Positions 30,166 through 45,320 of a stretch of DNA of 64,000 bases are shown here, in pieces. Below the pieces are notes generated by a model. It did no database searches and was not told the origin of the DNA. It worked only from the letters and a program-made list of their open reading frames with translations. Both the position numbers and the translations under genes were made by a program. Position 1 is the stretch's first letter, and each line of letters starts with the position of its first letter. The stretch lies in IMG/VR virus record IMGVR_UViG_3300045988_115146; one strand, given 5' to 3'. The stretch is from a virus.

Positions 30166-30567
30166 ATGGCTAAGAAAAAGAAAGACAAACTTAAAGATGC
30201 CAGGGAAGAATTAGAATCAGGTGATATCCTTGAACCAATGGATATTTCTAAGTTGGGAACAAACGGAGATGTATGCTTTGGTAAGCATTATGATCTTTCA
30301 ACCAAGGAATGCAAGATGTGCGGGGATTCCGAATTATGTTGTATCAAGTTCACAGATCTAATGGGTAAGACCAGAAAGGAATTAGAAGCTGATACCCAAT
30401 ACAAGGATTTGGAACCTTTGATTGATATGGCAGGTTGCAAGAAGTATTACCGTAAATTGGTAAGGGATAAACTTGGTAAGAGAGAAATACTTGATAAGCT
30501 TCAGAGTAGGTTTGAATTATCACGTAAAGAAGCAAGAGACTTATACCGTAAATTTAACAGTAAATAA
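30166..30567 (+). CDS. hypothetical K/E-rich protein with a Cys cluster
   Basis: 133 aa; CFGKHYDLSTKECKMCGDSELCC. Confidence 0.45.
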   Translation: MAKKKKDKLKDAREELESGDILEPMDISKLGTNGDVCFGKHYDLSTKECKMCGDSELCCIKFTDLMGKTRKELEADTQYKDLEPLIDMAGCKKYYRKLVRDKLGKREILDKLQSRFELSRKEARDLYRKFNSK

Positions 30568-30568
30568 C

Positions 30569-31144
30569 ATGATTCAATTAGAGTTCACAAAGATTCGGGA
30601 GGTTAAATCCCCCAACCGAGCAAACGAAGGGGATGCAGGTTTAGATTTCTATATCCCTAAGTTATCAGAAAAGGATATACTAAGGGTGGGGGAAAAAGAT
30701 TTACGTGATATGGTTGGTATCAACCGTAAGATGTATAGTAAAGGTTATATCAAGTTCAATGGTATGGGAACTGATGATCTTTATGTAATCGTTAAACCTC
30801 ATGGAAGGTTGCTTATTCCATCAGGTATAAAGGTACTGATCAATCCCAAAGAGTCTATGCTAATGGCAGCAAACAAATCTGGGGTTGCTACTAAAGATGG
30901 GTTGACATTCACTGCAGAGATTGTGGATAGTCCATATACTGGTGAAATGCACATAGGTATACAAAATAATTCACCTGAAGAAGTATGGATACCTCTTCAA
31001 CAGGATAAGAAGATAATGCAGTTCATACATGTTCCAATCCTACTTTCAAATCCCATAGAGATACCTAATGAGGAGTATGAAGAGAAAGCAAAGGACTGGG
31101 GAACAAGAGGAGACAAAGGATTTGGTGCACACGATAACAAATAA
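30569..31144 (+). CDS. dut: trimeric dUTP diphosphatase
   Basis: The ANEGDAGLDFYIP motif and beta-rich sequence fit dUTPase, and the C-terminus ends GDKGFG. ATG at 30569 directly follows the upstream stop, so the track start at 30473 is an overlapping upstream extension. Confidence 0.75.
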   Translation: MIQLEFTKIREVKSPNRANEGDAGLDFYIPKLSEKDILRVGEKDLRDMVGINRKMYSKGYIKFNGMGTDDLYVIVKPHGRLLIPSGIKVLINPKESMLMAANKSGVATKDGLTFTAEIVDSPYTGEMHIGIQNNSPEEVWIPLQQDKKIMQFIHVPILLSNPIEIPNEEYEEKAKDWGTRGDKGFGAHDNK

Positions 31145-31148
31145 GAAG

Positions 31149-32060
31149 ATGGACTCGAGGGACATAATTCAGGAACCTGGTATCATACCCGGTGATAAGT
31201 ATTTGGAAGAGATATACTCTATGCAAAAAGAACTGTTATCTGGTTATATAGGCATAGAGGGATTACCACAATACCCAATAGACATAAATACTAAGGCATC
31301 ACAATCCTTGTTGAAGGATTTCACTGCTAGAGTGGTAGAGGAATTATCAGAGGGATATGAATCATTCCAAGCTATCAGTGAAAGTATGAGTAAAAATCAT
31401 TGGAAGTTAGCTAATGGTAATTGTGAAGACTCAATCTACATTGAATTGTTAAACAATCTTCAAAATGCCAATGAAGAGAATGCAGATGCAATACACTTCT
31501 TTGTAGAGTTGCTAATATATGCAAATGTAGGTCCAGATGACATTATGTCATATATGGAGAAGTATGCTAAGGATAATCACTTCAATAAGATTGAAATTGA
31601 TAGTTTCAATGAAATGAGAGGTGATGTATTATATACTGCTCAGAATATGGGAGTGAAATGGTTGATGGATGAGGGTAATATTGATGTTACACTTAATCAT
31701 CAAAAGATAGATCTCTTAAAGTGGTATGAGAATAAAGATAGTGGATCTTTACCTGAATACAACATAAACTTATTAGTTGGTGGTAGGATGTATAACTATG
31801 AGGACTATGAAATTCAATATCCATACATACTGTGGAAGATAACCCATCACCTTAACATTGCTCGTAACTTTTTGAAGAATAAGCCTTGGAAGCAATCTCA
31901 GGTAATGACTCAAGAGTTAAAGTACCAGGCTGAATTAGTGAAGGCATTCATATATTTCTGTGGATACCTTGGATGGATAGGTATGGATTCAAAGGAAGTA
32001 TTCTACATCTACTTCAAAAAGAATCACATTAATATGTTCCGTCAAAAGTCGAAGTATTAA
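31149..32060 (+). CDS. all-alpha NTP pyrophosphohydrolase (dimeric dUTPase / MazG / dCTPase-like)
   Basis: FTARVVEELSEGYES (ExxE) and NANEENADAIHFFVELL (EExxD) are typical of dimeric dUTPase/MazG-type enzymes. The likely start is ATG 31149 (MDSRD). Confidence 0.5.
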   Translation: MDSRDIIQEPGIIPGDKYLEEIYSMQKELLSGYIGIEGLPQYPIDINTKASQSLLKDFTARVVEELSEGYESFQAISESMSKNHWKLANGNCEDSIYIELLNNLQNANEENADAIHFFVELLIYANVGPDDIMSYMEKYAKDNHFNKIEIDSFNEMRGDVLYTAQNMGVKWLMDEGNIDVTLNHQKIDLLKWYENKDSGSLPEYNINLLVGGRMYNYEDYEIQYPYILWKITHHLNIARNFLKNKPWKQSQVMTQELKYQAELVKAFIYFCGYLGWIGMDSKEVFYIYFKKNHINMFRQKSKY

Positions 32061-32061
32061 T

Positions 32062-33051
32062 ATGAACATAGTAAAGAGCAATAGGCCAGTAGATGCTTGG
32101 GAGCAAATACTTGAAAATTTTTTGGTTAAGAAACCAGAATGGTTTAGTGAAGGGATAGGGTATAACTTAACCGATTCATTATTCACTTATGATCTGGTAG
32201 TAGAGATATCAGAAGCTAAGTTTGATCCAGAATTTGATTTTGGTAAGTTATTTGGATATACAGCTACTAAGTGGACTGGATTAATAACTAATTACCTTGA
32301 TCTTGATATTCTTGATCAGGCAAAGTTAATGATAAGGAAGTTAGAGGAGAATAAGGCAGTAAATAGGAATTATCACATCGGTTTCCATTTTGCTGACAAT
32401 CATGGCAGTGGAAAAGGATGCTTGGTTGGAGGTATATTCTCCCGTAAGATTGGGGTTGATAATCCTGAGGTAACAGTAATCATACGTTCATCCGAAGTAG
32501 TTACAAGGTTGCCAATAGACATGTTGCTGTTCTGTCGTATGGGACAGTACATTTATGGTCATGATAATTTTTCATTGAAGTTAGTTATCAAGGCTGCTTG
32601 GGCAAATGATACTACCATACTTCTATATCAGAATATAAAGGACTTAAAAGAGTTCTTGAAAGAAAACTGTAATGATGAGGCTCGTAGGAAAAAGATACGT
32701 AAGTCACTGAAAAAATTAATGACAAGTGATGAGGCTAGTTATAAAACCTATGGCAACAGTTTTAGAGCTTTCAAAGTACTTAGGAAAGATTTAGGATATA
32801 AGCAAAAATCAATGTTGGCCTCTGACTTAGAAATTGGAGATTGGGATGGAATTCCATTACCAGAGGTATGTCCATCAATTCTAAAGCGTAACATGATAAA
32901 GAAGACATATCTTAAGTTCACAGAGAAGTATGGCCTTAAACTAAAGTTGGAAGAGAATACAGAGAAGAAAAAGAAAAAGTTGATATCATTCTCTTCACCT
33001 GATGAAGATGATATGGATGATAACGAACCAATAGCTGAGGCTAATGAGTAA
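32062..33051 (+). CDS. divergent thymidylate-synthase-fold protein, paralog A
   Basis: NRNYHIGFHF...GKGCLVGGIFSRK...VTVIIRSSEVVTRLPIDMLLFCRMGQY parallels the ThyA segments sRR.i.s / PC.. / RS.D. It is clearly paralogous to the next ORF (DPEFDFGKLFGYTATKWTGLITNYLD versus DPEFDFGRHFNYTSAKWKSLIANYID). Confidence 0.4.
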   Translation: MNIVKSNRPVDAWEQILENFLVKKPEWFSEGIGYNLTDSLFTYDLVVEISEAKFDPEFDFGKLFGYTATKWTGLITNYLDLDILDQAKLMIRKLEENKAVNRNYHIGFHFADNHGSGKGCLVGGIFSRKIGVDNPEVTVIIRSSEVVTRLPIDMLLFCRMGQYIYGHDNFSLKLVIKAAWANDTTILLYQNIKDLKEFLKENCNDEARRKKIRKSLKKLMTSDEASYKTYGNSFRAFKVLRKDLGYKQKSMLASDLEIGDWDGIPLPEVCPSILKRNMIKKTYLKFTEKYGLKLKLEENTEKKKKKLISFSSPDEDDMDDNEPIAEANE

Positions 33052-33829
33052 GTTAAAAGTAAAGAATAACCTGTTAGTGTTCCGAAATAGCATGAAAGCT
33101 TGGGAGGGGCTTAACAGGTTATTCTTATTCAATATTCCCGGTTTGGATATTGAAAGAATTGGTAAAGCTCAATATATAAATGATTTGGTTATTTATATTA
33201 AAGAACCTCTAGTAGACCCGGAATTTGATTTTGGAAGGCACTTTAATTATACATCTGCTAAATGGAAATCTTTGATAGCTAATTATATAGATGAGAATTC
33301 AATGATTGATCTGAGACAAGAAGTGGTGAGATCATTGAATTCAAGAAAGATTTTCAACATAGGGTATCAGTTTGATAATAAGCATGCACATGGAAAGAAT
33401 TGTTTATTATCATTGACAGTATCAAAGAAAGCTGGTATGGATTATCCCATGATAACGGTATTCATGAGGGCTTCTGAAGTAACTAAAAGACTAATATGTG
33501 ATCTTTTATTAATACAAAGAATTGGTGAATACATATTCACTGGGGATAAATTCTGTATATCAATACACTTTAGTCAGATATTCAATGATGATACGGTATT
33601 ATTGATGTACCATGCTCATGAGGATCTATTAAAGCTTAGTGATAGAATTGGTATATATGATAGTAATTGGTATGATAGGCTGAAGTATCTACTAAAAGTA
33701 GATCCCGATAAGATAAAGTATAAGGTACATAAAAGAGCATTGAAAGTACTTAGGCCAGAATTGTTTAAGTATCCTAAAACTCTGGCCAAGGATTGTACAC
33801 TGGGTAATGAAGACTGGCTACCTTTCTAA
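33044..33829 (+). CDS. divergent thymidylate-synthase-fold protein, paralog B
   Basis: SRKIFNIGYQF...GKNCLLSLTVSKK...ITVFMRASEVTKRLICDLLLIQRIGEY. It is a tandem paralog of 32062-33051. Confidence 0.4.
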   Translation: MSKLKVKNNLLVFRNSMKAWEGLNRLFLFNIPGLDIERIGKAQYINDLVIYIKEPLVDPEFDFGRHFNYTSAKWKSLIANYIDENSMIDLRQEVVRSLNSRKIFNIGYQFDNKHAHGKNCLLSLTVSKKAGMDYPMITVFMRASEVTKRLICDLLLIQRIGEYIFTGDKFCISIHFSQIFNDDTVLLMYHAHEDLLKLSDRIGIYDSNWYDRLKYLLKVDPDKIKYKVHKRALKVLRPELFKYPKTLAKDCTLGNEDWLPF

Positions 33830-33873
33830 GAAAGGGAAGTCTATTGAATTGCAAACATAAAAAAATTATAACC

Positions 33874-34644
33874 ATGAGAATATATTCAAATCCCTACGAA
33901 TTGATGTCTGAGACTGCCCGTAATATATGGGAGATGGGTACAGAGGTAAAACCAAAAACTTACCAAAACAAAGTAATAGAAGGCAAAGATGAGTTCATAA
34001 CTAAAGAGCTTATTTGTGAACAATATTGCTTAACTCACATGGATGATCCATCTCCATTATTTGTATTTACCAAATCTAAAGATTGGGCAGATGCCGAATT
34101 TAAAGAGAGAATTAGTGGAGTAATGGAAAATCCAGGTAAAGCTTGGGAATTACGTAAAGATATCTGGGAAGAGTTCTTAGTAAATGGGTTCTTTGATTAT
34201 ACCTATGCTGAACGTATGAATGAGACAGTTTCATATAAAGGCAAGGCATTTTCTAAAATAGGAGCAATTATAGAGTTGTTAAAAACAGACAACGATACTA
34301 GAAAAGCCATACTAAATATATATGGTGAGGATGGTTTTAATGAGGATTGTGATTCAAACTATCTTGGTGGTGAACATAGAATACCATGTTCAATGTATTA
34401 TGATTTCCTTATCCGGGAGAATGCCAGAGGAGAAAAGCAATTAAATATTTGCTATCACCAAAGATCATCCGATTTTGTAACTCATTTCGGAAATGATGTA
34501 TATTTGGCATGGAGACTGATGGAATATGTAGCTAGTGAAGTAGGAATTAAACCTGGATATTTATATCAAACTATTGATAGTTTGCATAGCTATAAAAAAG
34601 ATTGGGTAAAGTTAAAGACATCAATCCAAACTGAATTGAGATAA
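33874..34644 (+). CDS. ThyA-family enzyme (thymidylate synthase or dNMP hydroxymethylase/methylase)
   Basis: TRKAILNIYG...RIPCSMYYDFLIR...LNICYHQRSSDFVTHFGNDVYLAWRLMEYVA aligns without gaps to the ThyA segments PCH..QF and [20 protein letters not shown]. The track start at 33844 is TTG; ATG 33874 is likelier. Confidence 0.7.
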   Translation: MRIYSNPYELMSETARNIWEMGTEVKPKTYQNKVIEGKDEFITKELICEQYCLTHMDDPSPLFVFTKSKDWADAEFKERISGVMENPGKAWELRKDIWEEFLVNGFFDYTYAERMNETVSYKGKAFSKIGAIIELLKTDNDTRKAILNIYGEDGFNEDCDSNYLGGEHRIPCSMYYDFLIRENARGEKQLNICYHQRSSDFVTHFGNDVYLAWRLMEYVASEVGIKPGYLYQTIDSLHSYKKDWVKLKTSIQTELR

Positions 34645-34648
34645 CCTC

Positions 34649-34723
34649 ATGGGTAATGGTATGTTTTGAATGGTGTCCTATCTGAGAATTGAGATTAAAG
34701 CTAAATAAATTACCATTACCCAT
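34649..34723. repeat. 13-bp inverted repeat with a 49-nt spacer, upstream of the tRNA cluster
   Basis: atgggtaatggta (34649-34661) pairs with taccattacccat (34711-34723). Confidence 0.8.
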
Positions 34724-34727
34724 CTTT

Positions 34728-34804
34728 GGGCCCATAGCTCAGTTGGTAAGAGCAGCGGACTCATAATCCGAAGGTCGGGGGTTCAAGCCCCTCTGGGCCC
34801 ACCA
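34728..34804 (+). tRNA. tRNA-Met (anticodon CAT; could be an Ile2-type if lysidinylated), CCA encoded
   Basis: The cloverleaf was folded by hand: acceptor gggccca/tgggccc, T-arm ggggg-ttcaagc-ccctc, anticodon loop ctCATaa (CAT at 34762-34764). Confidence 0.85.
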
Positions 34805-34903
34805 AAGATTTTCTCTTATTTTCTTATTTTGTGCGTGGACAATACAAACAGTCCTGGTAAATTCGAAGGTACTAGACAGTAGTGATACAGGCTAGTACCA
34901 ATT

Positions 34904-34978
34904 ACGGGAGTAGCACAGTCAGGTTAGTGTACTTGCTTTGGGAGCAAGTGGTCGCAGGTTCGAATCCTGTCTCCCGTA
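34904..34978 (+). tRNA. tRNA-Pro (anticodon TGG)
   Basis: Acceptor acgggag/ctcccgt, anticodon stem cttgc/gcaag with loop ttTGGga, T-loop ttcgaat. Confidence 0.8.
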
Positions 34979-34991
34979 CATATTAGTAAAG

Positions 34992-35074
34992 GCTCGGATG
35001 GAGAAATAGGTAAACTCATCAGATTTAAGCTCTGACGGTCATTGACCTTGCGGGTTCGACTCCCGCTCCGAGTA
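34992..35074 (+). tRNA. tRNA-Leu (anticodon TAA), class II with a long variable arm
   Basis: Acceptor gctcgga/tccgagt, anticodon stem tcaga/tctga with loop ttTAAgc, variable arm cggtcattgaccttg, T-arm gcggg-ttcgact-cccgc. Confidence 0.8.
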
Positions 35075-35098
35075 CATAGTATCAAATACTCTTGTCTT

Positions 35099-35797
35099 AT
35101 GAATGATGTTATAATTACCATGGCTGGAAAGGGTACAAGAACAAATAAAGAAGTACCCAAACAATTCTTAAAAGTATCACAAGATAAATACCTATTTGAA
35201 ATCTCATTAGATAAATTTATACGTACTGGATGCTATCGTAAGATAGTTCTTGTTGTGAATCCAGAGTATGTAGAGTGGGTAAAAAATAGAATATCTAATA
35301 ACTATCCAGGTAAATTAGGCAGATTAATCACAGTAATACCAGGTGGTGATACTGCACAACACTCGAGAATCTTAGGATTTGAAAGCTTATTAACAGATGA
35401 GGAATCACTTTGGCCAAATACAGTTACTTTCCATGATGGTGTAAGAGTTGGTTTCGATGAAAATCTACTAACATTCATGATTAATAATTGTAGGTTTAAT
35501 AGCACTGCATATGTACCGTATATTCCAGCAACTGGTACATTAAGATTAGATTCTGATAAGGTAGTATATACTAAGGATAAGTACATGAGGCTTCAGACTC
35601 CCATGGTATTTCCATTTTACCAATTCTATGGATGTTATAATAAGGCAAAAGATAAGGGTATAGAATACCAAACAGCTTCTGATTTGTATGAAGACAACAG
35701 TGGTTTAGTGAACTATGTAATGGGTAATAGATTGAACTTCAAGGTAACTTTCGCAGAAGATATTGATGTAGTAAGATTATTATACAATCATGAATAA
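35099..35797 (+). CDS. IspD/TarI-family cytidylyltransferase (CDP-alcohol synthase)
   Basis: The N-terminus is [23 protein letters not shown] (compare AAG.G.R......PKQ.L), followed by HDGVRV and LQTPMVF. The true ATG is 35099, because the track start at 35042 lies inside tRNA-Leu. Confidence 0.75.
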
Positions 35798-36662
35798 TAT
35801 GAGTTATATTAGTAATCATATCCATAATGGTCATCTAATAAGCAACCTTAGGAGAGAAGTATGGGATATAGAACTAGATATGTTAGATCTAGTAGTTAAT
35901 ATATGTGACAAGATAGGAGTAAAATATTATCTTGATGCAGGTACACTATTAGGTGCAGTTAGACACCAAGGATTCATACCTTGGGATGATGATATCGATT
36001 TGGTAATGTTCAGAGATGAATATGATAAGTTTATATCATACTGTAGGGAAAATTTAGAATATCCATATTTCTTACAAGTACCAGAAACTGATACTTCTAT
36101 TTATCAACATGCAAAGATAAGGAGGAGTGATACAACAGCTATATTAGAAAGGGATCTAGAAGCTAATTGGGATTTTAATCAAGGCATATTCATAGATATA
36201 TTCCCATTAGATAGAGTTCCAGAAGATAAGGGGAAAAGGGAAAGATTTCTATATGAATTGCAATTAATTAAACTAGAACTCTTCTTTTTAAAGAATAGGA
36301 GCTGGAAATTTGCTAATATTCCCCTTGAAAGGGAAAGAATGAATTACCTTAAAAACCTTTATGAAAAGAATAGGAAAAGGTATAATAACACTCAAGAGAA
36401 TTGTTGGGCAACATTAGCTTTTCCTGAACATAACAATATCATAAAGAATATTGATTTTTACAAGAACCAATATCCGGATGTATTCTTAACATTTGAAGGT
36501 AGAAATTTGAGAGTACCGAATATTTACCATGGAGTATTGGAAGACATATATGGAGAGGATTACTTAACTCCCAAGAAATATTCTGGATTACATGGTAGGA
36601 TATTGGTGAATACTCATAAAACATATAAAAACAATATGGAAGACTTTCAAATATTGAAGTAG
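35790..36662 (+). CDS. LicD-family phosphotransferase (phosphocholine / ribitol-phosphate transferase family)
   Basis: [36 protein letters not shown] is the LicD signature, including the DxD. Confidence 0.75.
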
Positions 36663-36667
36663 GTTAT

Positions 36668-36697
36668 AGACAGTATACCGTAAAAAGTATACTGTCT
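36668..36697 (+). terminator. 11-bp hairpin after the LicD-like gene
   Basis: agacagtatac (36668-36678) pairs with gtatactgtct (36687-36697). The downstream T-tract (tattg) is weak. Confidence 0.45.
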
Positions 36698-36782
36698 TAT
36701 TGTCGAATAAGCTAAAGAATCTCAACAGAGTTATGGTTTATTAAATAACTATTGAATACTGCAATATTTAATAATATTATAG

Positions 36783-38351
36783 ATGGAGTCAAGATATGCC
36801 ATAATAAAGAGTTTTTCACAGGTTAAGAAACTTGTGAAAGCTTGTTTGAAGACAGGTATAGCTTCAATAGACTATGAGACTAATGCTGAAGGCATATACA
36901 ATAAAACATTTAGACCAACAATTCTATCAGTAACTTTCCAGGTTGGTTCTGGAGTATCTATTCCATTATGTCATCATGAATATGATAACCCTCATTGGAA
37001 AAAATGGCTTCTATACTTTGGTAGAAAAGTAGTTGAGAATCCAAAAGTAACTAAAGTAGGTTGGAATCTGAAGTTTGACCTTCAGATATTCGAGTTGTAT
37101 GGTATATATGTAAGAGGTACAGTACTTGATGGTATGTTAATGAAGTATCTCTTAAATGAAGAGAAACCAAATGACCTTAAATCAATGGTTCGTAGGTATT
37201 TACCAGAACACGGAGATTACGAAAAAGCTGATAAGTTTGATAAGATACCATGGAATAAAAAGCCACTGGAACCACTCTGCAAATATGGATGTCAAGATAC
37301 CGATTATACCCTACGATTATCTATGTTCTTTGAGAACAAATTGATAGAAATAGGTATGTATCCATTATTAAGGCATCTGATAATGCCAGCATCAAGAGTA
37401 TTACAGCATGCAGAGAAAACTGGTTTATACCTTGATAGGAAATTCAATCAGGAATTACTTGAATCTTACAAGCCAAAGATTGATCAAGCAACTTTAAATT
37501 GCTTGAATCTTCCCAGAGTTAAAAGATTCTCTAGATGGCTTATCCAAGAAAGAATAAGCAAATACATTTCTTCAATTGAAATGGAACTTGAAGACTTGGA
37601 TTATAGTGATCCAAAAAATGCAAGGAAGATAGCTAGCAGGGAACAAAAAATATCTAACATAAGAGCTGGTGTATATACAACCAAGAAAGAATTAGAATTA
37701 ACCCGTGATATAAATCTTGGTAGTAAAGTAGACTTACCAATGTTGTTATATTCTGAAAAGGGGTTCAAATTCCCTATTATAAAATATACGAAGGATAAGA
37801 CTACAAATCGTGATACTGATAAGCCGAGTACTGATGAGGATACATTGGTAGAACTTCGGTTGTCAATTAAGAATCCCGAAAGTCCCAAAGCAATATTCTT
37901 GGATAATCTACTCAAGTTGAGAGGATTGAAGAAGATGTACACTACATATATAAAAGGGTGGCACGATAAAGTACAGGATGATAATAAATTACATGGAAGA
38001 TTTTTGATACATGGAACAACTAGCGGGAGATTGAGTTGCATAGGCGGAGATACAAAAGTATTAACTCAATATGGAGAAATACCAATTATAGATATTAAGG
38101 ATTGGATTGGTGAAGGATTATGTGCCATGACTAAAGATGGGTGGCAATTAATAGAAAACTTCATATATAAGGGTGTTGATGATATGTATGAAGTAACACT
38201 TGAAGATGGTACTTCTATTCAATGTACTTTAGATCATAAATTTATAACTAATAAAGGTACTAAAAGATTAAGGGAAATTTACAATAAATACCGAAATACT
38301 ATTGATTCTAAAATTAAACTTTTAAGATATGTCCCAGACTACGAACAATAG
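36783..38351 (+). CDS. family A DNA polymerase, N-terminal fragment (3'-5' exonuclease + start of the pol domain) fused to a split-intein N-half
   Basis: The exonuclease motifs are SIDYETNAE, GWNLKFDLQIF and YGCQDTDYTLRL. The pol motif TTSGRLS is followed by CIGGDTKVLT...TLDHKF (intein blocks A and B), then a stop after 104 intein residues. Confidence 0.8.
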   Translation: MESRYAIIKSFSQVKKLVKACLKTGIASIDYETNAEGIYNKTFRPTILSVTFQVGSGVSIPLCHHEYDNPHWKKWLLYFGRKVVENPKVTKVGWNLKFDLQIFELYGIYVRGTVLDGMLMKYLLNEEKPNDLKSMVRRYLPEHGDYEKADKFDKIPWNKKPLEPLCKYGCQDTDYTLRLSMFFENKLIEIGMYPLLRHLIMPASRVLQHAEKTGLYLDRKFNQELLESYKPKIDQATLNCLNLPRVKRFSRWLIQERISKYISSIEMELEDLDYSDPKNARKIASREQKISNIRAGVYTTKKELELTRDINLGSKVDLPMLLYSEKGFKFPIIKYTKDKTTNRDTDKPSTDEDTLVELRLSIKNPESPKAIFLDNLLKLRGLKKMYTTYIKGWHDKVQDDNKLHGRFLIHGTTSGRLSCIGGDTKVLTQYGEIPIIDIKDWIGEGLCAMTKDGWQLIENFIYKGVDDMYEVTLEDGTSIQCTLDHKFITNKGTKRLREIYNKYRNTIDSKIKLLRYVPDYEQ

Positions 38352-39383
38352 GCAAAAGGTATTCAAAGATAAATCTATCAACGGTCCAAGGAGAAAATTA
38401 AAGTTAATAGTAGAGGATGGTAAAAGATATATAAAGAAAGAAGATCTTTTACATTACTTCTTTCAAGAGAATTGGAATATAGAAGACTTTAATTATCATT
38501 TTGGCATTGGTCATAGGATAGTGAGAGGTTCTCTATATAAATGGTTTACTAGGGAAGAAATAGAGGAATCTCATAGAAAGAAGATTGCTAATAAACAGAT
38601 TGGTAGTAATAATTCTAATAGGATTAATTGGTATAAACCCCGTAAGCTTATACCTTTATTGGATTTAGAAGAAGCCGTTAAAAAATCTACTTGTAAACAG
38701 GATTTGAAGGAGAGACTACAATTAACTTCTTGGGAATTGTCACACATACAACAGTTCTATAACTTTAAACTACCAAATAGATCTCCTTTACTTAATACTA
38801 AACTACAGTATTCTCTTTCTAGATGTGATATAAAACTTTTATGTAAAGTTATTACTGGAATGGGATGGGAAGATGTATTTTTCTATAATACTCCTAAGGC
38901 TATCTATAAAATGGATTGTCTTATTTGGGAACTTAGGAAGATAAATCGTTCTTTGAGGAGAGCTTTTAGGAAACAGATAGTAGATAATGGTATTAAGTTT
39001 CCTACAAATTTGATAGAGTATAAATTTCACAAAGCTCTAGAAAAAATGGATATAGAGCATGAAATACAATATTATATACCAGAACATAATATACATCTAG
39101 ACTTTTTAATAAAAGGTCATTACAACTTGGAATTAGATGGAAATTTGCATGAAGAAGAAGCAGATAGTGGTAGAGACCGTATTCTCAAATCTCTTGGCTA
39201 TAAAATTATAAGACTAGATTTAAAATCTCTAAATCTTACTAGATTCTCAAAAGAAAAGGAGGTAAGGAAATGTATAAAGAAATTGGTATTACCAAAGTTA
39301 AACCAATAGGTAAGAAAGGTGTATATGATTTATCCGTTATGAACTGTCATCAGTTTGTGGCTAATAATATCCTAAATCATAAT
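38037..39383 (+). mobile_element. split intein (IntN 38037-38348, IntC 39270-39383) enclosing a free-standing endonuclease gene
   Basis: IntN starts at Cys (tgc 38037-38039). IntC is MYKEIGITKVKPIGKKGVYDLSVMNCHQFVANNILNHN, followed by Ser+1 (tct 39384-39386). The joined exteins read TSGRLS/SQEPNLQQIP, which is the PolA T.TGRLSS..PNLQNIP motif. Confidence 0.75.
38329..39309 (+). CDS. free-standing homing-endonuclease candidate with a Vsr/DUF559-like PD-(D/E)xK C-terminal domain
   Basis: The C-terminus is HKALEKMDIEHEIQYYIPEHNIHLDFLIKGHYNLELDGNLHEEEADSGRDRILKSLGYKIIRL (DUF559/Vsr pattern). It uses a different frame from both polymerase halves and overlaps each by 23-40 nt. Confidence 0.6.
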   Translation: MSQTTNNRQKVFKDKSINGPRRKLKLIVEDGKRYIKKEDLLHYFFQENWNIEDFNYHFGIGHRIVRGSLYKWFTREEIEESHRKKIANKQIGSNNSNRINWYKPRKLIPLLDLEEAVKKSTCKQDLKERLQLTSWELSHIQQFYNFKLPNRSPLLNTKLQYSLSRCDIKLLCKVITGMGWEDVFFYNTPKAIYKMDCLIWELRKINRSLRRAFRKQIVDNGIKFPTNLIEYKFHKALEKMDIEHEIQYYIPEHNIHLDFLIKGHYNLELDGNLHEEEADSGRDRILKSLGYKIIRLDLKSLNLTRFSKEKEVRKCIKKLVLPKLNQ

Positions 39384-40424
39384 TCTCAAGAACCAAACTT
39401 ACAGCAAATCCCAAAGACTTCAGTAGACCCAAATATAAAGAAGCAATTAGTAGCCCCAGATGGTAAGTTGTACATGGCTCTTGACTACTCTCAAGCAGAG
39501 TTAAGAATCATGGCTCATCTGTCTGGGGATGAAACATATCTTGAGGCTTTTGCAAAAGGTCAGGATCCTCACCTTGCTATTGCAGCAAAGAAGTATGGGG
39601 TATCATATGAGGAAGCATATAAAGCTTACAGTGATGAACAACACCCAGATCATAATCTTTGGAAGAACCGAAGAAAGCAGGCAAAACAGATTTGCTTCGG
39701 TATTATCTATGGTATTCAGAAGAAACTGCTTGCAGTTAAATTGTCAGATCCAAAAGCTGGTATTATTGTAACACCAGATGAAGCTCAGCAGCAGTTAAAT
39801 GAATTCTTCTATGAACATCCTAAGATTAAAAAGTTCATGATTCATCAAGAAAAGGTATTGATTAAGCATGGGTATATAAAATCTTTGTTCGGAAGAAAGA
39901 GAAGGTTACCTCAGGTATATTCCGATAATGAACAAGAAGCAGCATACGCAGTACGATTATCTGTTAATATGCCATGTCAATCAGCAGCATCTGATATGAA
40001 CTTATTTGCTTCAGTATTAAACTATTGGAAAATGAGACAAGGTAAGTTGCCATTTATGCAAGAGACTTGTAATGTTCACGATGCTACCTACTATTTGGTG
40101 AGGCCAGAATATATAAATACATGGGTAGTACATGAAATATGGGAAACTTGTCGTAACCCTAATACAAAAGAATATTTTAACTTTCAGATAGACGACGTCA
40201 ATATGAGCATGGATTTTGTTATAGGACGTTCAATGGCAGAGGAATTACCATTTATACCCGGTTATGATTATAGGAAAATGCTTAAACCAGATTTTAATCC
40301 AGATGAGTACTTAGAAGAACATCGTAAGTACAGAGGTATTGAAATAGAAGATTACCCTAAGTTGTATCCAGAAGAGATAGCTAGGAATAAAATGGAATTT
40401 GAGAAAAGGATATATGAAAGGTAA
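39270..40424 (+). CDS. split-intein C-half fused to the family A DNA polymerase C-terminal fragment (palm/fingers)
   Basis: Motif A is LDYSQAELRIMAHLSGDE, motif B is RRKQAKQICFGIIYG, and motif C is NVHDATYYLV. Confidence 0.8.
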   Translation: MYKEIGITKVKPIGKKGVYDLSVMNCHQFVANNILNHNSQEPNLQQIPKTSVDPNIKKQLVAPDGKLYMALDYSQAELRIMAHLSGDETYLEAFAKGQDPHLAIAAKKYGVSYEEAYKAYSDEQHPDHNLWKNRRKQAKQICFGIIYGIQKKLLAVKLSDPKAGIIVTPDEAQQQLNEFFYEHPKIKKFMIHQEKVLIKHGYIKSLFGRKRRLPQVYSDNEQEAAYAVRLSVNMPCQSAASDMNLFASVLNYWKMRQGKLPFMQETCNVHDATYYLVRPEYINTWVVHEIWETCRNPNTKEYFNFQIDDVNMSMDFVIGRSMAEELPFIPGYDYRKMLKPDFNPDEYLEEHRKYRGIEIEDYPKLYPEEIARNKMEFEKRIYER

Positions 40425-40908
40425 TATACCATACTTTGATTGTTATCATGTTACAAGAAGTGGTGATGTATACTCCAAGTATAAAGACAAAGTTACTTGG
40501 AGGAAAATGGCTAAGAGAAAGAAGAATAATGGTTACATTATAGTAAGCTTAAGAAATAACGATGGGGTTAAGTATACATTTAACATACATAGGTTAGTAG
40601 CTGAAACTTATATACCTAACCCAGATAATAAGCCATGTGTAGGTCATAAAGACAATAATAGGGAAAACAATACAGTAGAAAACTTATACTGGTGTACTCA
40701 TAAAGAAAATACTAAACAATGTATAGATGATGGTAGATTTAATATACCAAGCCAAAAGTTAAATGATGAGTCTATAAATAGTATGATAGAAGATTATGAA
40801 AGTGGTATGAGTAACATACAGATAAAGGCCAAATACAAAATAAGTATTATGACCATGTATAAATACTTCAACGAAAGAGGTGTTATATGGAAAAAAGTCA
40901 AAAGGTAG
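40399..40908 (+). CDS. HNH homing endonuclease (NUMOD4 + HNH_3 + C-terminal HTH)
   Basis: YHVTRSGDVYS (NUMOD4), GHKDNNRENNTVENLYWCTHKEN (HNH), and MSNIQIKAKYKISIMTMYKY (HTH-like). It overlaps the polymerase 3' end. Confidence 0.75.
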   Translation: MRKGYMKGNIPYFDCYHVTRSGDVYSKYKDKVTWRKMAKRKKNNGYIIVSLRNNDGVKYTFNIHRLVAETYIPNPDNKPCVGHKDNNRENNTVENLYWCTHKENTKQCIDDGRFNIPSQKLNDESINSMIEDYESGMSNIQIKAKYKISIMTMYKYFNERGVIWKKVKR

Positions 40909-43774: not shown

Positions 43775-44674
43775 ATGCTTATGGTAGTGGACGGTAGTAA
43801 CCTTGCTCACCGTTCATACCATAAGTTTAAGAATCTTAAAGCTAATAATGGAGCTGGAACAGGATTAGTATATGGGTTCTTAAGAATATTTGGTTCATAC
43901 CTTGTAAGGTTTAAGCCAAGTCATGTGGTAATTACATTTGATACACATAAGAGTAAATCATCAAACTTCCGTAATGACTTATTGGAGGGTTATAAAGCTC
44001 ACAGAAGTAAGGTAAGTATGGATTATGAAGACTTCAATAAACAATTGGCTTTGTTGAGAAGGATATTGAGATTACTTGGAGTTCAAATGATCATAGACAA
44101 TAAAGGATTGGGACATGAATCAGATGATTACATTGCTTGGTTGGTAATAAACCATAAAGGAAAATCACTGATAATATCTTCTGACAAAGACTTCTGTCAA
44201 TTGTTAGATAAGAAGGTAAAGATATTCAACCCAAGTAAAGAAACTCTAGTACATAACCAGACATGTAGAGAGATAATGGGATATTCAGCAGAAGAATGTG
44301 TTGACTACTTAATACTCAACGGAGATAAGTCAGATGACATACCTGGTTATTATGGTATGGGAGAAGTAAAGACTAGATCATTCCTTGATAAATTTGGTAG
44401 TATAGCAGATTTTATTAATGATAGTGAAGCAGAATTCAAAGGTATAGAAAGAGATCAATTAGAAGAGTTATATAAGAAGAATAAGTCTCTGATAGACTTG
44501 AGATCTGCTTTGAATCTGTATCCAATAAAGATAATCCCTTGGGTAAAAGGATGTACTAATAATATAAGGAAAGACAGGTTATTCATGGTATTAGATAAGT
44601 TTAACCTAAGATCTTTCAAGATACCAGATTTTTTAGAACCTTTCAAAAAACTACAGACTTATGTATCACGGTAA
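43775..44674 (+). CDS. 5'-3' exonuclease / flap endonuclease (T4 RNase H / Pol I N-terminal domain family)
   Basis: The motifs are MVVDGSNLAHRSYH, ESDDYIA, SSDKDFCQL and GDKSDDIPG. The start was chosen after the RecA stop. Confidence 0.8.
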   Translation: MLMVVDGSNLAHRSYHKFKNLKANNGAGTGLVYGFLRIFGSYLVRFKPSHVVITFDTHKSKSSNFRNDLLEGYKAHRSKVSMDYEDFNKQLALLRRILRLLGVQMIIDNKGLGHESDDYIAWLVINHKGKSLIISSDKDFCQLLDKKVKIFNPSKETLVHNQTCREIMGYSAEECVDYLILNGDKSDDIPGYYGMGEVKTRSFLDKFGSIADFINDSEAEFKGIERDQLEELYKKNKSLIDLRSALNLYPIKIIPWVKGCTNNIRKDRLFMVLDKFNLRSFKIPDFLEPFKKLQTYVSR

Positions 44675-45320
44675 GTATCAAATTATGTTCACCGGTGTTT
44701 CTGGAGTAGGGAAAACTACTATAGCTAAAGAAATAGCCGAATTATTGAATATACCATTCATATCTGGGTCATATTCAGATTTAGTACCAGAAACAAAAGA
44801 TATGCCACATGCTGATATGATACAGCAAGATGCAAAAACAGTATTTATGCAAGATATGCAAGTATTGAATCTACGTAACAAAGCTTTCCGAATGGAAGAT
44901 AACTTTGTAACAGATAGATCATACTTTGATTCTGCAGCATATTTCATTAATAAGTTATCCCATAGAATTGAAGAATGTGATCTAGATCATGCCATCAACT
45001 TATGTAGAATGTTACTTGGTCAACAGTGTACACATTTGATATTCATACCATTTTCGGATAAATTCTTTAATGAGTGGGTAACTGAGAATAATGGTAAAAG
45101 GGTATTGTCAAAGTACTACCAATATCAAGTATCTCAAATAATGTATGGTTTATTAAAAGTATGGGGATATAAACCAGATTCAAAAATATATCAACTATGT
45201 AATGGAGTTCCCAATACAGGGGTGATGGATATAATGGGTTATAAGGTAAAAGTTCTCATACTTGATGAGATGAATCACGAAAAGAGAGAATACTTAATCA
45301 GGAAGTTTCTTCAGTTATGA
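44661..45320 (+). CDS. P-loop nucleotide/nucleoside-monophosphate kinase-like protein
   Basis: The P-loop is FTGVSGVGKTTIAKE, and the protein is small (219 aa). Substrate is unknown. Confidence 0.45.
   Translation: MYHGKYQIMFTGVSGVGKTTIAKEIAELLNIPFISGSYSDLVPETKDMPHADMIQQDAKTVFMQDMQVLNLRNKAFRMEDNFVTDRSYFDSAAYFINKLSHRIEECDLDHAINLCRMLLGQQCTHLIFIPFSDKFFNEWVTENNGKRVLSKYYQYQVSQIMYGLLKVWGYKPDSKIYQLCNGVPNTGVMDIMGYKVKVLILDEMNHEKREYLIRKFLQL

Follow-up and report, generated by a model that had tools for sequence, protein, structure and literature searches.

A predicted cytosine-nucleotide pathway and an inserted IspD-LicD gene pair next to the DNA polymerase gene of a Flandersviridae-type phage

The virus record IMGVR_UViG_3300045988_115146 harbours, next to the gene of its DNA polymerase, a run of genes encoding nucleotide pyrophosphatases, proteins of the thymidylate synthase (TS) fold, an IspD/TarI-type cytidylyltransferase and a LicD-family phosphotransferase. 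This arrangement raises the question of whether the genes serve one pathway or more than one. An earlier note on this DNA had proposed a single hypermodification cassette, in which a 5-hydroxymethyl pyrimidine is synthesised and decorated with a phospho-alcohol from a cytidine diphosphate (CDP)-activated donor. We analysed the whole stretch of 64,000 nucleotides (the window), which over the 10 kb tested is about 96% identical to MT121964.1, a phage sequence of 75.5 kb from human faeces that carries no annotation. By gene content and the literature, the phage belongs to the proposed family "Flandersviridae", described as contractile-tailed phages of Bacteroides and Parabacteroides with genomes of about 85 kb, without recognisable lysogeny genes, and among the phages most often detected in human gut metagenomes (Benler et al. 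2021, Microbiome 9:78, PMC8008677). All genes named in the earlier note lie on the + strand, with positions that agree with the prediction exactly or to a few codons, and their families were reproduced by profiles or structural models (Table 1). The explanation we lean towards is that two independent modules lie side by side, a cytosine-nucleotide pathway (module 1) and a mobile IspD-LicD pair (module 2).

Table 1. Features of the region in the window
Feature	Position	Strand	Basis or remark
Small Cys-rich open reading frame (ORF), 133 aa	30166..30567	+	First gene of conserved block
Trimeric dUTPase	30569..31144	+	Pfam PF00692, GDAGLDF motif
All-alpha nucleoside triphosphate (NTP) pyrophosphatase, dimeric d(C/U)TPase / MazG-like type	31149..32060 (start 31068 possible, 31149 likelier)	+	
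ORF3, TS-fold family, ORF4 paralog	32062..33051	+	35% identity to ORF4, E 2e-45
ORF4, TS-fold family	33044..33829	+	AlphaFold2 model
TS5, folate-type TS homolog	33874..34644	+	Pfam PF00303; start 33874 likely
tRNA-Met(cat), tRNA-Pro(tgg), tRNA-Leu(taa)	34728..35075	+	ARAGORN; left border of variable slot
Two-gene insert IspD + LicD	35078..36668	+	blastn borders, presence/absence table
IspD/TarI-family cytidylyltransferase	35099..35797	+	Pfam PF01128
LicD/fukutin-family phosphotransferase, soluble	35790..36662	+	Pfam PF04991, DDDID metal motif
Inverted repeat GACAGTATAC...GTATACTGTC ahead of polA	36668..36696	+	Kept in relatives; right border of slot
Family A DNA polymerase, fractured gene	36783..40424	+	Pfam
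P-loop kinase	44661..45320	+	Deoxynucleoside-kinase / thymidylate-kinase fold

The single cassette did not withstand comparison with relatives, which resolved it into two evolutionary units. We screened 79 IMG/VR loci retrieved by the ORF4 family (at least 560 IMG/VR stretches encode an ORF4 relative). IspD and LicD are missing from most relatives that carry the TS block, and were found in 14 of the 79 loci, only those closest to the window (at least 93% ORF4 identity). DNA homology with relatives lacking the pair (L016 and L045, blastn) ends at position 35077, the end of tRNA-Leu, and restarts at 36669-36713; with L045 and L014 it resumes at the inverted repeat, a putative terminator by its sequence. 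With these borders, the pair is a clean insertion of 1.6 kb into a variable slot delimited by tRNA-Leu and polA, and the three tRNAs are kept in relatives both with and without it. In sister lineages the slot carries about 0.2-1.2 kb of other accessory sequence, with almost nothing or three small ORFs in place of the pair. In L045 (12485-13713) these encode 127 aa, 202 aa (no family match) and 79 aa (DUF3310); the 202-aa ORF had been considered as ThyX-like and was dropped after a negative Pfam search. Benler et al. (2021, PMC8008677) had already shown a licD/ispD insertion in the replication module of Flandersviridae (their Fig. 3b). They considered it non-essential and suggested a role of its own for each gene, one in teichoic-acid modification and the other in isoprenoid metabolism.

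Module 1 (30166-34644 plus the kinase gene at 44661-45320) was present in all relatives of the Flandersviridae type examined. The order helicase, Cys-rich ORF, dUTPase, NTP pyrophosphatase, ORF3, ORF4, TS5, tRNAs, PolA and, further downstream, kinase is kept among the 79 loci down to 42% ORF4 identity. The 133-aa Cys-rich ORF has no significant family match in Pfam or PHROG; it is 52-100% identical among relatives and adjoins the dUTPase gene in those whose DNA extends that far (tblastn). All the genes of the proposed cassette are under purifying selection, with ratios of nonsynonymous to synonymous substitution rates (dN/dS) of 0.02-0.13. Parts of the module also occur in cultured phages of Firmicutes and Actinobacteria. 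Clostridium perfringens siphoviruses (E1, CPD4, CP3 and others) encode a dUTPase_2 NTP pyrophosphatase, an ORF4-like protein, a TS5 homolog and PolA in equal order; in Clostridium phage E1 (OP753453.1, 4699-10481) the ORF4-like protein was recovered by hhalign with a probability of 97%, and the TS is 40.5% identical to TS5. Mycobacteriophage Muddy (gp50-gp44) possesses helicase, thymidylate kinase, dUTPase, gp47 and TS genes followed by PolA, its gp47 being weakly ORF4-like and its TS having an RVPC motif and Asp177. Since module 1, with the TS-fold family of ORF4, is found in C. perfringens phages available in culture and in Muddy, a phage used in therapy, the pathway is directly testable and relevant to phage therapy. 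In the annotations of E1 and Muddy, the genes of the module appear merely as thymidylate synthase and hypothetical proteins. Contig L012 (IMGVR_UViG_3300045988_165016), a candidate for a close relative without the pair, was excluded as probably a chimeric assembly; past 11.6 kb, after its TS gene, the GC content changes abruptly and high-GC unrelated genes (Fic-like, tape-measure-like) follow.

As in phage T4, the conserved block includes enzymes predicted to hydrolyse nucleoside triphosphates. The trimeric dUTPase was identified by Pfam (E 4e-9, 36.8 bits vs a cut-off of 22) and by phrog_135 (7e-17), while its match to NCBIfam dut (1.5e-14) is under the equivalog cut-off. The NTP pyrophosphatase matches Pfam dUTPase_2 (PF08761; 1.2e-5, 26.1 bits vs a cut-off of 22.9) and the nucleotide pyrophosphohydrolase families phrog_12184 (1e-19) and phrog_173 (6e-11), has the acidic motifs EELSEG and EENADAIHF, and is homologous to the dUTPase_2 protein at the equivalent position in Clostridium phage E1. 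It is a candidate dCTPase, a specificity suggested only by the presence of a separate trimeric dUTPase.

The gene most informative about the base is TS5. Its product matches Pfam Thymidylat_synt (PF00303; 2.6e-15, 56.7 bits vs a cut-off of 24.3) and phrog_160 (8e-27), and does not reach the TS equivalog cut-offs of NCBIfam. In an alignment of TS5 orthologs with E. coli ThyA and the T4 dCMP hydroxymethylase, residues E58, W80, Y94, R126, C146, R166, S167, D169, H207 and Y209 are invariant. The position of ThyA N177 is Asp in all TS5 orthologs, with the same RSxD-x7-D spacing as in T4 gp42, and the motif RSSDFVTHFGND is spaced like T4 RSNDVVFGFRND. TS5 lacks both Asn177 and Leu143 of canonical thymidylate synthases, having Asp and Arg there. 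The change N177D shifts TS-type enzymes to dCMP, L143D/E correlates with a hydroxymethyl instead of a methyl product, and D169N marks the flavin-dependent 5-hydroxy-dCMP synthases; T4 gp42, RB69 gp48, DLP3 gp80 and HY126 AfhB, which are all the characterised phage N177D TS homologs, feed modified cytosine into DNA (Lee et al. 2026, PMC13326640). With Asp aligned to N177 in TS5 and, through a weak alignment, in ORF3 and ORF4 as well, cytosine is the expected modified pyrimidine, a specification that goes beyond the earlier note. Judged by these residues, TS5 is probably a dCMP hydroxymethylase like T4 gp42. The best sequence match of TS5 in the PDB is the 5-hydroxy-dCMP synthase group (HY126 AfhB, 9iqu/9iqc); nonetheless TS5 keeps Asp at position 169 and, by this residue, is not of the 5-hydroxy-dCMP class.

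The claim of three ThyA-fold ORFs was borne out in three different ways, TS5 being recognised by Pfam, ORF4 by structure prediction and ORF3 as a paralog of ORF4. Profile searches placed the dUTPase, the NTP pyrophosphatase, TS5, IspD and LicD in the families proposed for them; ORF3 and ORF4, however, have no match in Pfam, PHROG, NCBIfam or, by phmmer, the PDB, and their fold was resolved through structure prediction. An AlphaFold2 model of ORF4 built from 58 homologs reached a mean predicted local distance difference test score (pLDDT) of 91.4. In a Foldseek search of the PDB, all with probability 1.0, the first match was the HY126 dCMP hydroxylase AfhB (E 1e-7, template modelling scores 0.51/0.60), followed by the CMP hydroxymethylase MilA, the T4 dCMP hydroxymethylase and then many thymidylate synthases; matches to gp42 and TS were also obtained in BFVD. 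In the family alignment of ORF3 and ORF4 (58 sequences), C120, E145 and D153 are invariant and R142 is nearly so. These four residues of ORF4 align with C146, R166, D169 and N177 of ThyA (C120/R142/E145/D153 to C146/R166/D169/N177) in a weak hhalign match to the TS5/ThyA profile (E 0.012, probability 3.5%). ORF3 falls within the invariant columns of the family, with a candidate catalytic Cys and with Glu and Asp aligned to D169 and N177, respectively, and has a dN/dS of 0.04-0.08. The D169N mark is absent from both proteins, and so are W80, H207 and Y209, the folate-site and 3'-OH residues. ORF3 and ORF4 thus appear to keep the Cys, the phosphate-binding Arg and the Asp and have lost the folate-site residues, and their reaction is expected to differ from that of TS5. 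From the structural model they are probably a pair of TS-fold enzymes that run another reaction on a cytosine nucleotide, possibly working as a heterodimer. The family comprises 252 clusters among 1.84 billion representative proteins, in which its profile retrieves no canonical TS, and no Pfam match was found for the ten distant members scanned. This family is the most novel item of the region and, if the assignment is true, would represent a new class of TS-fold enzymes yielding a cytosine derivative not yet described.

The P-loop nucleotide kinase expected downstream was confirmed by its model (pLDDT 91.6), which is closest to deoxynucleoside and thymidylate kinases. Weak kinase matches were found in Pfam and PHROG, and the top Foldseek matches are the deoxyadenosine kinases 8puu and 2jaq, followed by thymidylate kinases (E 1e-6 to 1e-4). 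The gene is kept family-wide with 39-100% identity; homology to the P-loop protein of Clostridium phage E1 is not detectable. On the strength of the model it is a candidate dNMP kinase for the modified nucleotide.

Module 1 is most likely a T4-type pre-replicative pathway of cytosine-nucleotide modification, which would yield a C5-substituted dCTP, probably 5-hydroxymethyl-dCTP. Family and fold assignments, diagnostic residues, conservation, insertion borders and purifying selection are the observations from which we infer its substrates, products and order of steps, and likewise the acceptor of LicD. The d(C/U)TPase-like enzyme and the dUTPase would turn dCTP and dUTP into monophosphates, and TS5 would put a one-carbon unit on C5 of dCMP, most likely giving 5-hydroxymethyl-dCMP. 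The kinase of the deoxynucleoside/thymidylate kinase fold, together with a host NDP kinase, would bring the modified nucleotide to the triphosphate, which the phage PolA would incorporate. ORF3 and ORF4 may carry out their different reaction on a cytosine nucleotide alongside. The T4-type logic of base replacement claimed earlier fits this conserved part (dNTP-hydrolysing enzymes, TS-like enzyme, dNMP-type kinase and polymerase) and does not extend to IspD and LicD, which are not part of the conserved unit. Similar to the T4 pathway (gp56, gp42, gp1 and glucosyltransferases), the window has a dimeric d(C/U)TPase-family enzyme, a TS homolog that combines Cys146 and D169 with Asp in place of N177, a nucleotide kinase of its own near replication genes, and beside them a variable, non-essential transferase position. 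It differs in the additional trimeric dUTPase and two TS-fold paralogs, in Arg instead of Asp/Glu at the L143 position, and in that no glycosyltransferase was found; moreover, Flandersviridae keep a C5 DNA-methylase-like gene, unneeded by T-even phages, and their DNA modification is a prediction from genes. The 5-hydroxy-dCMP synthases (HY126 AfhB, RB69 gp48 and DLP3 gp80; Lee et al. 2026), which include the best structural match of ORF4, are likewise encoded by phages, have the TS fold, use dCMP and carry Asp at N177, and their loci also place a gene for activated-donor synthesis and transferases nearby. In contrast to the window (Asp in TS5, Glu in ORF3 and ORF4) they have D169N, and the donor genes encode NDP-arabinose synthesis enzymes with glycosyltransferases, where the window has a CDP-alcohol synthase and LicD.

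That module 1 places a hydroxyl-bearing cytosine in DNA seems fairly probable to us, and several observations weigh against a full substitution of cytosine. The ThyA L143 position is an invariant Arg (RIPC motif), polar but not acidic, in TS5 orthologs, where known hydroxymethylases have Asp/Glu; in view of this residue TS5 may instead be a dCMP methylase with a methyl product. A C5-cytosine DNA-methylase-like gene is kept family-wide with 67-93% identity on the same contigs as the TS block (L173-L233). Located just past the window end (MT121964.1, 4682-5677; L171), it has an intact catalytic Cys and the motifs GSPSCG, ENL and QKSRKR (QxRxR), and therefore implies cytosines with a free C5 in the DNA; its product could be an ordinary methylase or could act on C5-substituted cytosine. 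C-containing palindromes are significantly avoided in the whole window (observed/expected GATC 0.65, z -5.8; GTAC 0.73; CATG 0.79; CCGG 0.70), and ATGCAT occurs 0 times against 12.8 expected. Together the methylase-like gene and the palindrome avoidance suggest that cytosines are not fully substituted or shielded. In addition, modified DNA of Muddy or of the C. perfringens phages was not found in searchable literature. For Flandersviridae, it is not mentioned in Section 18 of Benler et al. (2021, PMC8008677), which holds their account of the family, and is not evident from titles and abstracts of papers naming the family. CATATG (0.39) and TTTAAA (0.45) are also avoided in the window. CpG is strongly depleted (observed/expected 0.41), with no excess of TpG/CpA (1.02), and the coding strand is purine-rich (A 36%, T 28.5%, G 20.5%, C 15%).

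These observations bring in a different role for module 1, namely nucleotide supply. In that case the virion DNA would be canonical, dCMP methylated or hydroxymethylated by TS5 would be deaminated to dTMP by the Cys-dependent ORF3 and ORF4, or pools would merely be rebalanced, and LicD would have no base hydroxyl to act on. The methylase-like gene and the avoided C-containing sites fit ordinary cytosine, the searchable literature on Muddy and the C. perfringens phages is silent on modified DNA, and the apparent retention of Cys, Arg and Asp without the folate-site residues in ORF3 and ORF4 is compatible with a reaction that is not a transfer. A dedicated d(C/U)TPase-type enzyme and kinase are, however, hallmarks of base replacement in T4, and a deaminase of the TS fold is without precedent. 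In addition, the precedent of the characterised phage N177D homologs (PMC13326640) runs against nucleotide supply, which we consider unlikely. The T4-type pathway, if present, could explain sequencing and assembly biases and resistance to Bacteroides restriction systems, and bears on the engineering of host range.

The IspD/TarI-type and LicD-family calls for module 2 were upheld by strong Pfam matches. IspD matches PF01128 with E 2.8e-25 (89.8 bits vs a cut-off of 27) and has the motifs MAGKGTR, HDGVR, LQTP and FKVT. Its alcohol-phosphate substrate is not assignable, because all NCBIfam scores are under the cut-offs (TIGR00453, ispD, 105 vs 181 bits; NF001183, ribitol-5-phosphate, 62 vs 166). 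LicD matches PF04991 with E 4.6e-39 (135 bits) over the full length of the family (positions 1-227 of 227), has the motif WDDDIDL and matches the catalytic domain of FKRP (6kaj) with 2e-7. The dN/dS of IspD is 0.125, and that of the pair 0.10-0.13. By family, IspD is predicted to make a CDP-activated alcohol, in that it would join CTP and a host alcohol phosphate; LicD would then transfer the phospho-alcohol from the CDP donor to a hydroxyl acceptor, with release of CMP. The same families and the same coupling are known from ISPD with fukutin/FKRP (CDP-ribitol) and from bacterial TarI/LicD (teichoic acid, lipopolysaccharide (LPS), capsule), where the genes are an adjacent pair at some bacterial loci. 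Unlike these, the pair of the window occurs in apparently lytic phages of Gram-negative Bacteroides, its LicD belongs to a phage-only clade, and the window has no reductase or kinase for the alcohol phosphate and no accompanying glycan-assembly genes.

The history of the pair is distinct from that of the TS block. The nearest relatives of LicD (39-49% identity) are all phage-encoded and form a single clade in a neighbour-joining distance tree; cellular homologs, sought in representatives of 185,579 species, reach about 36% identity at best. By these comparisons the window LicD belongs to a phage-specific clade, and on the same grounds we rejected the idea that it was captured recently from a capsule locus of a host. 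The clade spans at least five phage types with different hosts. Group B is a lineage of 48% GC with Flanders-like structural genes (41-78% identity), in which IspD and LicD stand in equal gene order within a 10.5-kb accessory island in the tail-fibre region (L103, 7261-17600). Inspection of this island by eye gave tRNAs, a Zn-finger transposase-like ORF, MazG-like, GTP cyclohydrolase I (FolE), a Cys-rich 200-aa ORF, Dps-like, and an N6/N4 DNA methyltransferase-like ORF read from its DLPYGTT motif. Group C, on contigs of about 100-174 kb, has the pair within an array of tRNA genes, amid auxiliary genes that include one of the nucleoside deoxyribosyltransferase family; ARAGORN reported a tmRNA-like gene within the array of L112 (7726-8147). 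L085 has LicD alone, near DNA ligase, endonuclease V-like, sigma factor and flap endonuclease (FEN) genes; L167 has polysaccharide pyruvyl transferase, LicD, IspD and RlaP genes beside a tail-fibre gene; and L169 is a T4-like phage with a longer LicD. No TS homolog was found within 10 kb of LicD in group B, group C, L085, L167 or L169, so that within this distance the proposed co-occurrence of the genes failed in other phages, as it did among relatives. Searches with the TS orthologs of L066 and L353 and with a degenerate DNA motif returned no contig of group B or C. IspD-LicD is a mobile accessory pair moving between unrelated phages independently of TS genes.

In all three lineages with the order IspD then LicD, the pair abuts tRNA genes despite differing neighbourhoods (window, 34728-35099; L081, 2075-3167; L082, 9238-10985; L112). 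The tRNA clusters may be a recombination hot spot that spreads the pair, or the pair may have an RNA-related role. In the latter case it would cap or decorate a hydroxyl of tRNA or other RNA and so evade tRNA-targeting defences, which would explain its location. LicD has a nucleotidyltransferase fold (Pfam and the FKRP structure), and in L167 the pair is followed by RlaP, a Pol-beta-type nucleotidyltransferase associated with RNA repair. Nonetheless, tRNA clusters are known to be plastic and could simply be the recombination sites of the cassette, sister phages hold identical tRNAs without the pair, and action of LicD or IspD on RNA is without precedent. We consider an RNA target very improbable.

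Among possible acceptors of LicD, a glycoconjugate of the host envelope or capsule, or a phage glycan, is the one we rank first, while stopping short of an even chance. Acceptors other than glycoconjugates and DNA, tRNA included, are rather unlikely, and DNA is more unlikely still. Updating the interpretation of Benler et al., IspD and LicD could put a phospho-alcohol (ribitol-phosphate, methylerythritol-phosphate, glycerol-phosphate or similar) on capsule, LPS or lipooligosaccharide, a glycoprotein glycan or a phage-associated glycan. The effect would be on receptor availability, by superinfection exclusion or reduced adsorption to infected cells and debris, or on immune recognition; adjacency to the TS genes would be accidental and the slot after the tRNAs a hot spot. 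We regard such glycan remodelling as a serious, if somewhat doubtful, possibility. The characterised members of the LicD family all act on glycans or glycolipids, and the best NCBIfam match of the window LicD is Mf1 cholinephosphotransferase. An IspD-like neighbour was found at 11 of the 80 nearest cellular LicD loci. The pyruvyl transferase and tail-fibre gene of L167, the tail-fibre region of group B and the variability of the slot in sister lineages (DUF3310 plus ORFs without family, or almost nothing) point in the same direction, and other viral contigs, which look temperate, carry a LicD fragment at the contig end, in the manner of a conversion gene. However, the Bacteroides and Parabacteroides hosts have no teichoic acid, the phages appear lytic, the phage-only ancestry of LicD is at odds with recent capture from a host capsule, and Pfam scans of the window detected no glycosyltransferase, flippase or other glycan gene alongside the pair.

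The remaining reading joins both modules, similar to the earlier proposal. TS5, with or without ORF3 and ORF4, would give a hydroxymethyl or hydroxyl pyrimidine in DNA, LicD would add the phospho-alcohol, and the resulting phosphodiester-linked hypermodified cytosine would block modification-dependent nucleases. Such a transfer onto a hydroxymethyl base is plausible chemically, and, in line with the note, we know of no description of it; none was found in the literature on phosphodiester or CDP-alcohol DNA modification or on phage LicD. Two points weigh in its favour and against strict independence of the modules. In the lineage of the window, IspD-LicD occupies precisely the space that separates polA from the cytosine-type TS genes and has their orientation. 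Further, genuine transferases that decorate DNA, e.g. the T-even glucosyltransferases, share its patchy distribution as accessory genes. A soluble LicD of a phage-only clade, spread over at least five phage types and hosts with different envelopes, favours a universal intracellular acceptor, and genes of DNA and nucleotide metabolism neighbour LicD in L085, in the group B island (methyltransferase-like, MazG-like and FolE, as read by eye) and in group C. LicD-family enzymes attack through primary hydroxyls (GalNAc O6, ribitol O1), and a 5-hydroxymethyl group is a primary hydroxyl. In a family without lysogeny genes (PMC8008677), slow remodelling of surface glycans is also less obviously useful.

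On the other hand, the joined pathway faces the separate movement of the pair and the TS genes, the glycan-type flanks in L167, and a methylase-like gene and restriction-site avoidance that speak against hydroxymethylated, shielded cytosines; moreover, the product of TS5 may be a methyl rather than a hydroxymethyl group. We know of no LicD/fukutin-family enzyme that acts on nucleic acid. In the MetaGPA screen for cytosine modification of viral DNA, LicD was present on 22 unmodified contigs and on 0 modified ones, and is listed as not enriched in the latter (PMC8670742 supplement). Nothing in our results singles out DNA as the LicD acceptor, and some of them point away from it. We consider the joined pathway improbable as a whole; if a hydroxyl-bearing cytosine is present in the DNA, its use by LicD becomes conceivable, though still somewhat doubtful. 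The boldest form, in which the phage LicD clade and IspD decorate 5-hydroxymethylcytosine of phage DNA with a phospho-alcohol (e.g. methylerythritol-, ribitol- or glycerol-phosphate) and ORF3/ORF4 separately form a new TS-fold class, is likewise unlikely. If true, a base decoration of the phosphodiester type would for the first time have an enzyme family assigned to it, and this in a highly prevalent family of human gut phages.

To our knowledge, the modified bases of SP-15, YerA41 and Carin-5 are the only phage base modifications with a phosphodiester-linked substituent, and they are the nearest chemical precedent for the decoration suggested earlier. They differ in being thymidine derivatives with a dihydroxypentyl linker and sugars. 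The Carin-5 gene block has glycosyltransferases and an NDP-sugar enzyme, with no LicD homolog reported (PMC12686479). For the pair itself, Benler et al. (2021) alone treat it in the literature on phage LicD; they describe the same two genes in the replication module of the same phage family, whereas their Section 18 does not mention TS-fold genes and 'thymidylate' is absent from their main text (PMC8008677). What we add to that work is the coupling of the two genes through a CDP-alcohol, a LicD clade specific to phages, the adjacency to tRNA genes and the cluster of cytosine-type TS genes. Whatever the acceptor of the IspD-LicD pair, it would mean either a new chemistry of DNA hypermodification or a novel means by which lytic phages alter glycoconjugates.

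Both modules belong to a replication module at 23.9-48 kb of the window, in which every gene is on the + strand. It begins with a DnaB-like helicase, a primase-like ORF (no Pfam match) and an SF2 helicase, followed by the genes discussed above and PolA, and continues with a gp32-like single-stranded DNA-binding protein, a RecA-like recombinase, a FEN, the kinase, Mre11/Rad50-like proteins and a PDDEXK nuclease. The DNA polymerase was rightly placed directly downstream of LicD, and it is a split gene, not one ORF. The N-terminal part (36783-38351) has Pfam matches to DNA_pol_A_exo1, DNA_pol_A (positions 23-123) and Intein_splicing, comprising the N-extein and the N-part of an intein. The C-terminal part (39270-40424) matches Intein_splicing (123-155) and DNA_pol_A (123-349), with the C-part of the intein followed by the C-extein. 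Between the halves, in another frame, lies a free ORF of DUF559 (Vsr-like endonuclease; 38329-39309). The junctions are GRLS|CIGGDTKVL for N-splicing, with the stop at 38351, and VANNILNHN|SQEPNLQQIPK for C-splicing. In the relatives L015 and L045 PolA is uninterrupted, with 762-764 aa. The sequence suggests that polA of the window contains a split intein with trans-splicing.

Genes encoding homing endonucleases of the HNH/helix-turn-helix type are dispersed through the module, including one after polA (40399-40908). Many relatives (e.g. L015, 10983-11689) possess a 169-aa homing-endonuclease gene and a 66-aa ORF between ORF4 and TS5, which are absent from the window. Five IMG/VR contigs of about 170-172 kb with the Flanders replication module (L353, L367, L396, L461 and L466) look like two-fold concatemers of genomes of about 85 kb, and are read in this way because near-identical genes sit on many contigs of 85-87 kb. 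Such contigs with the TS block were ruled out as group C phages, and are likely assembly artefacts or concatemeric replication intermediates.

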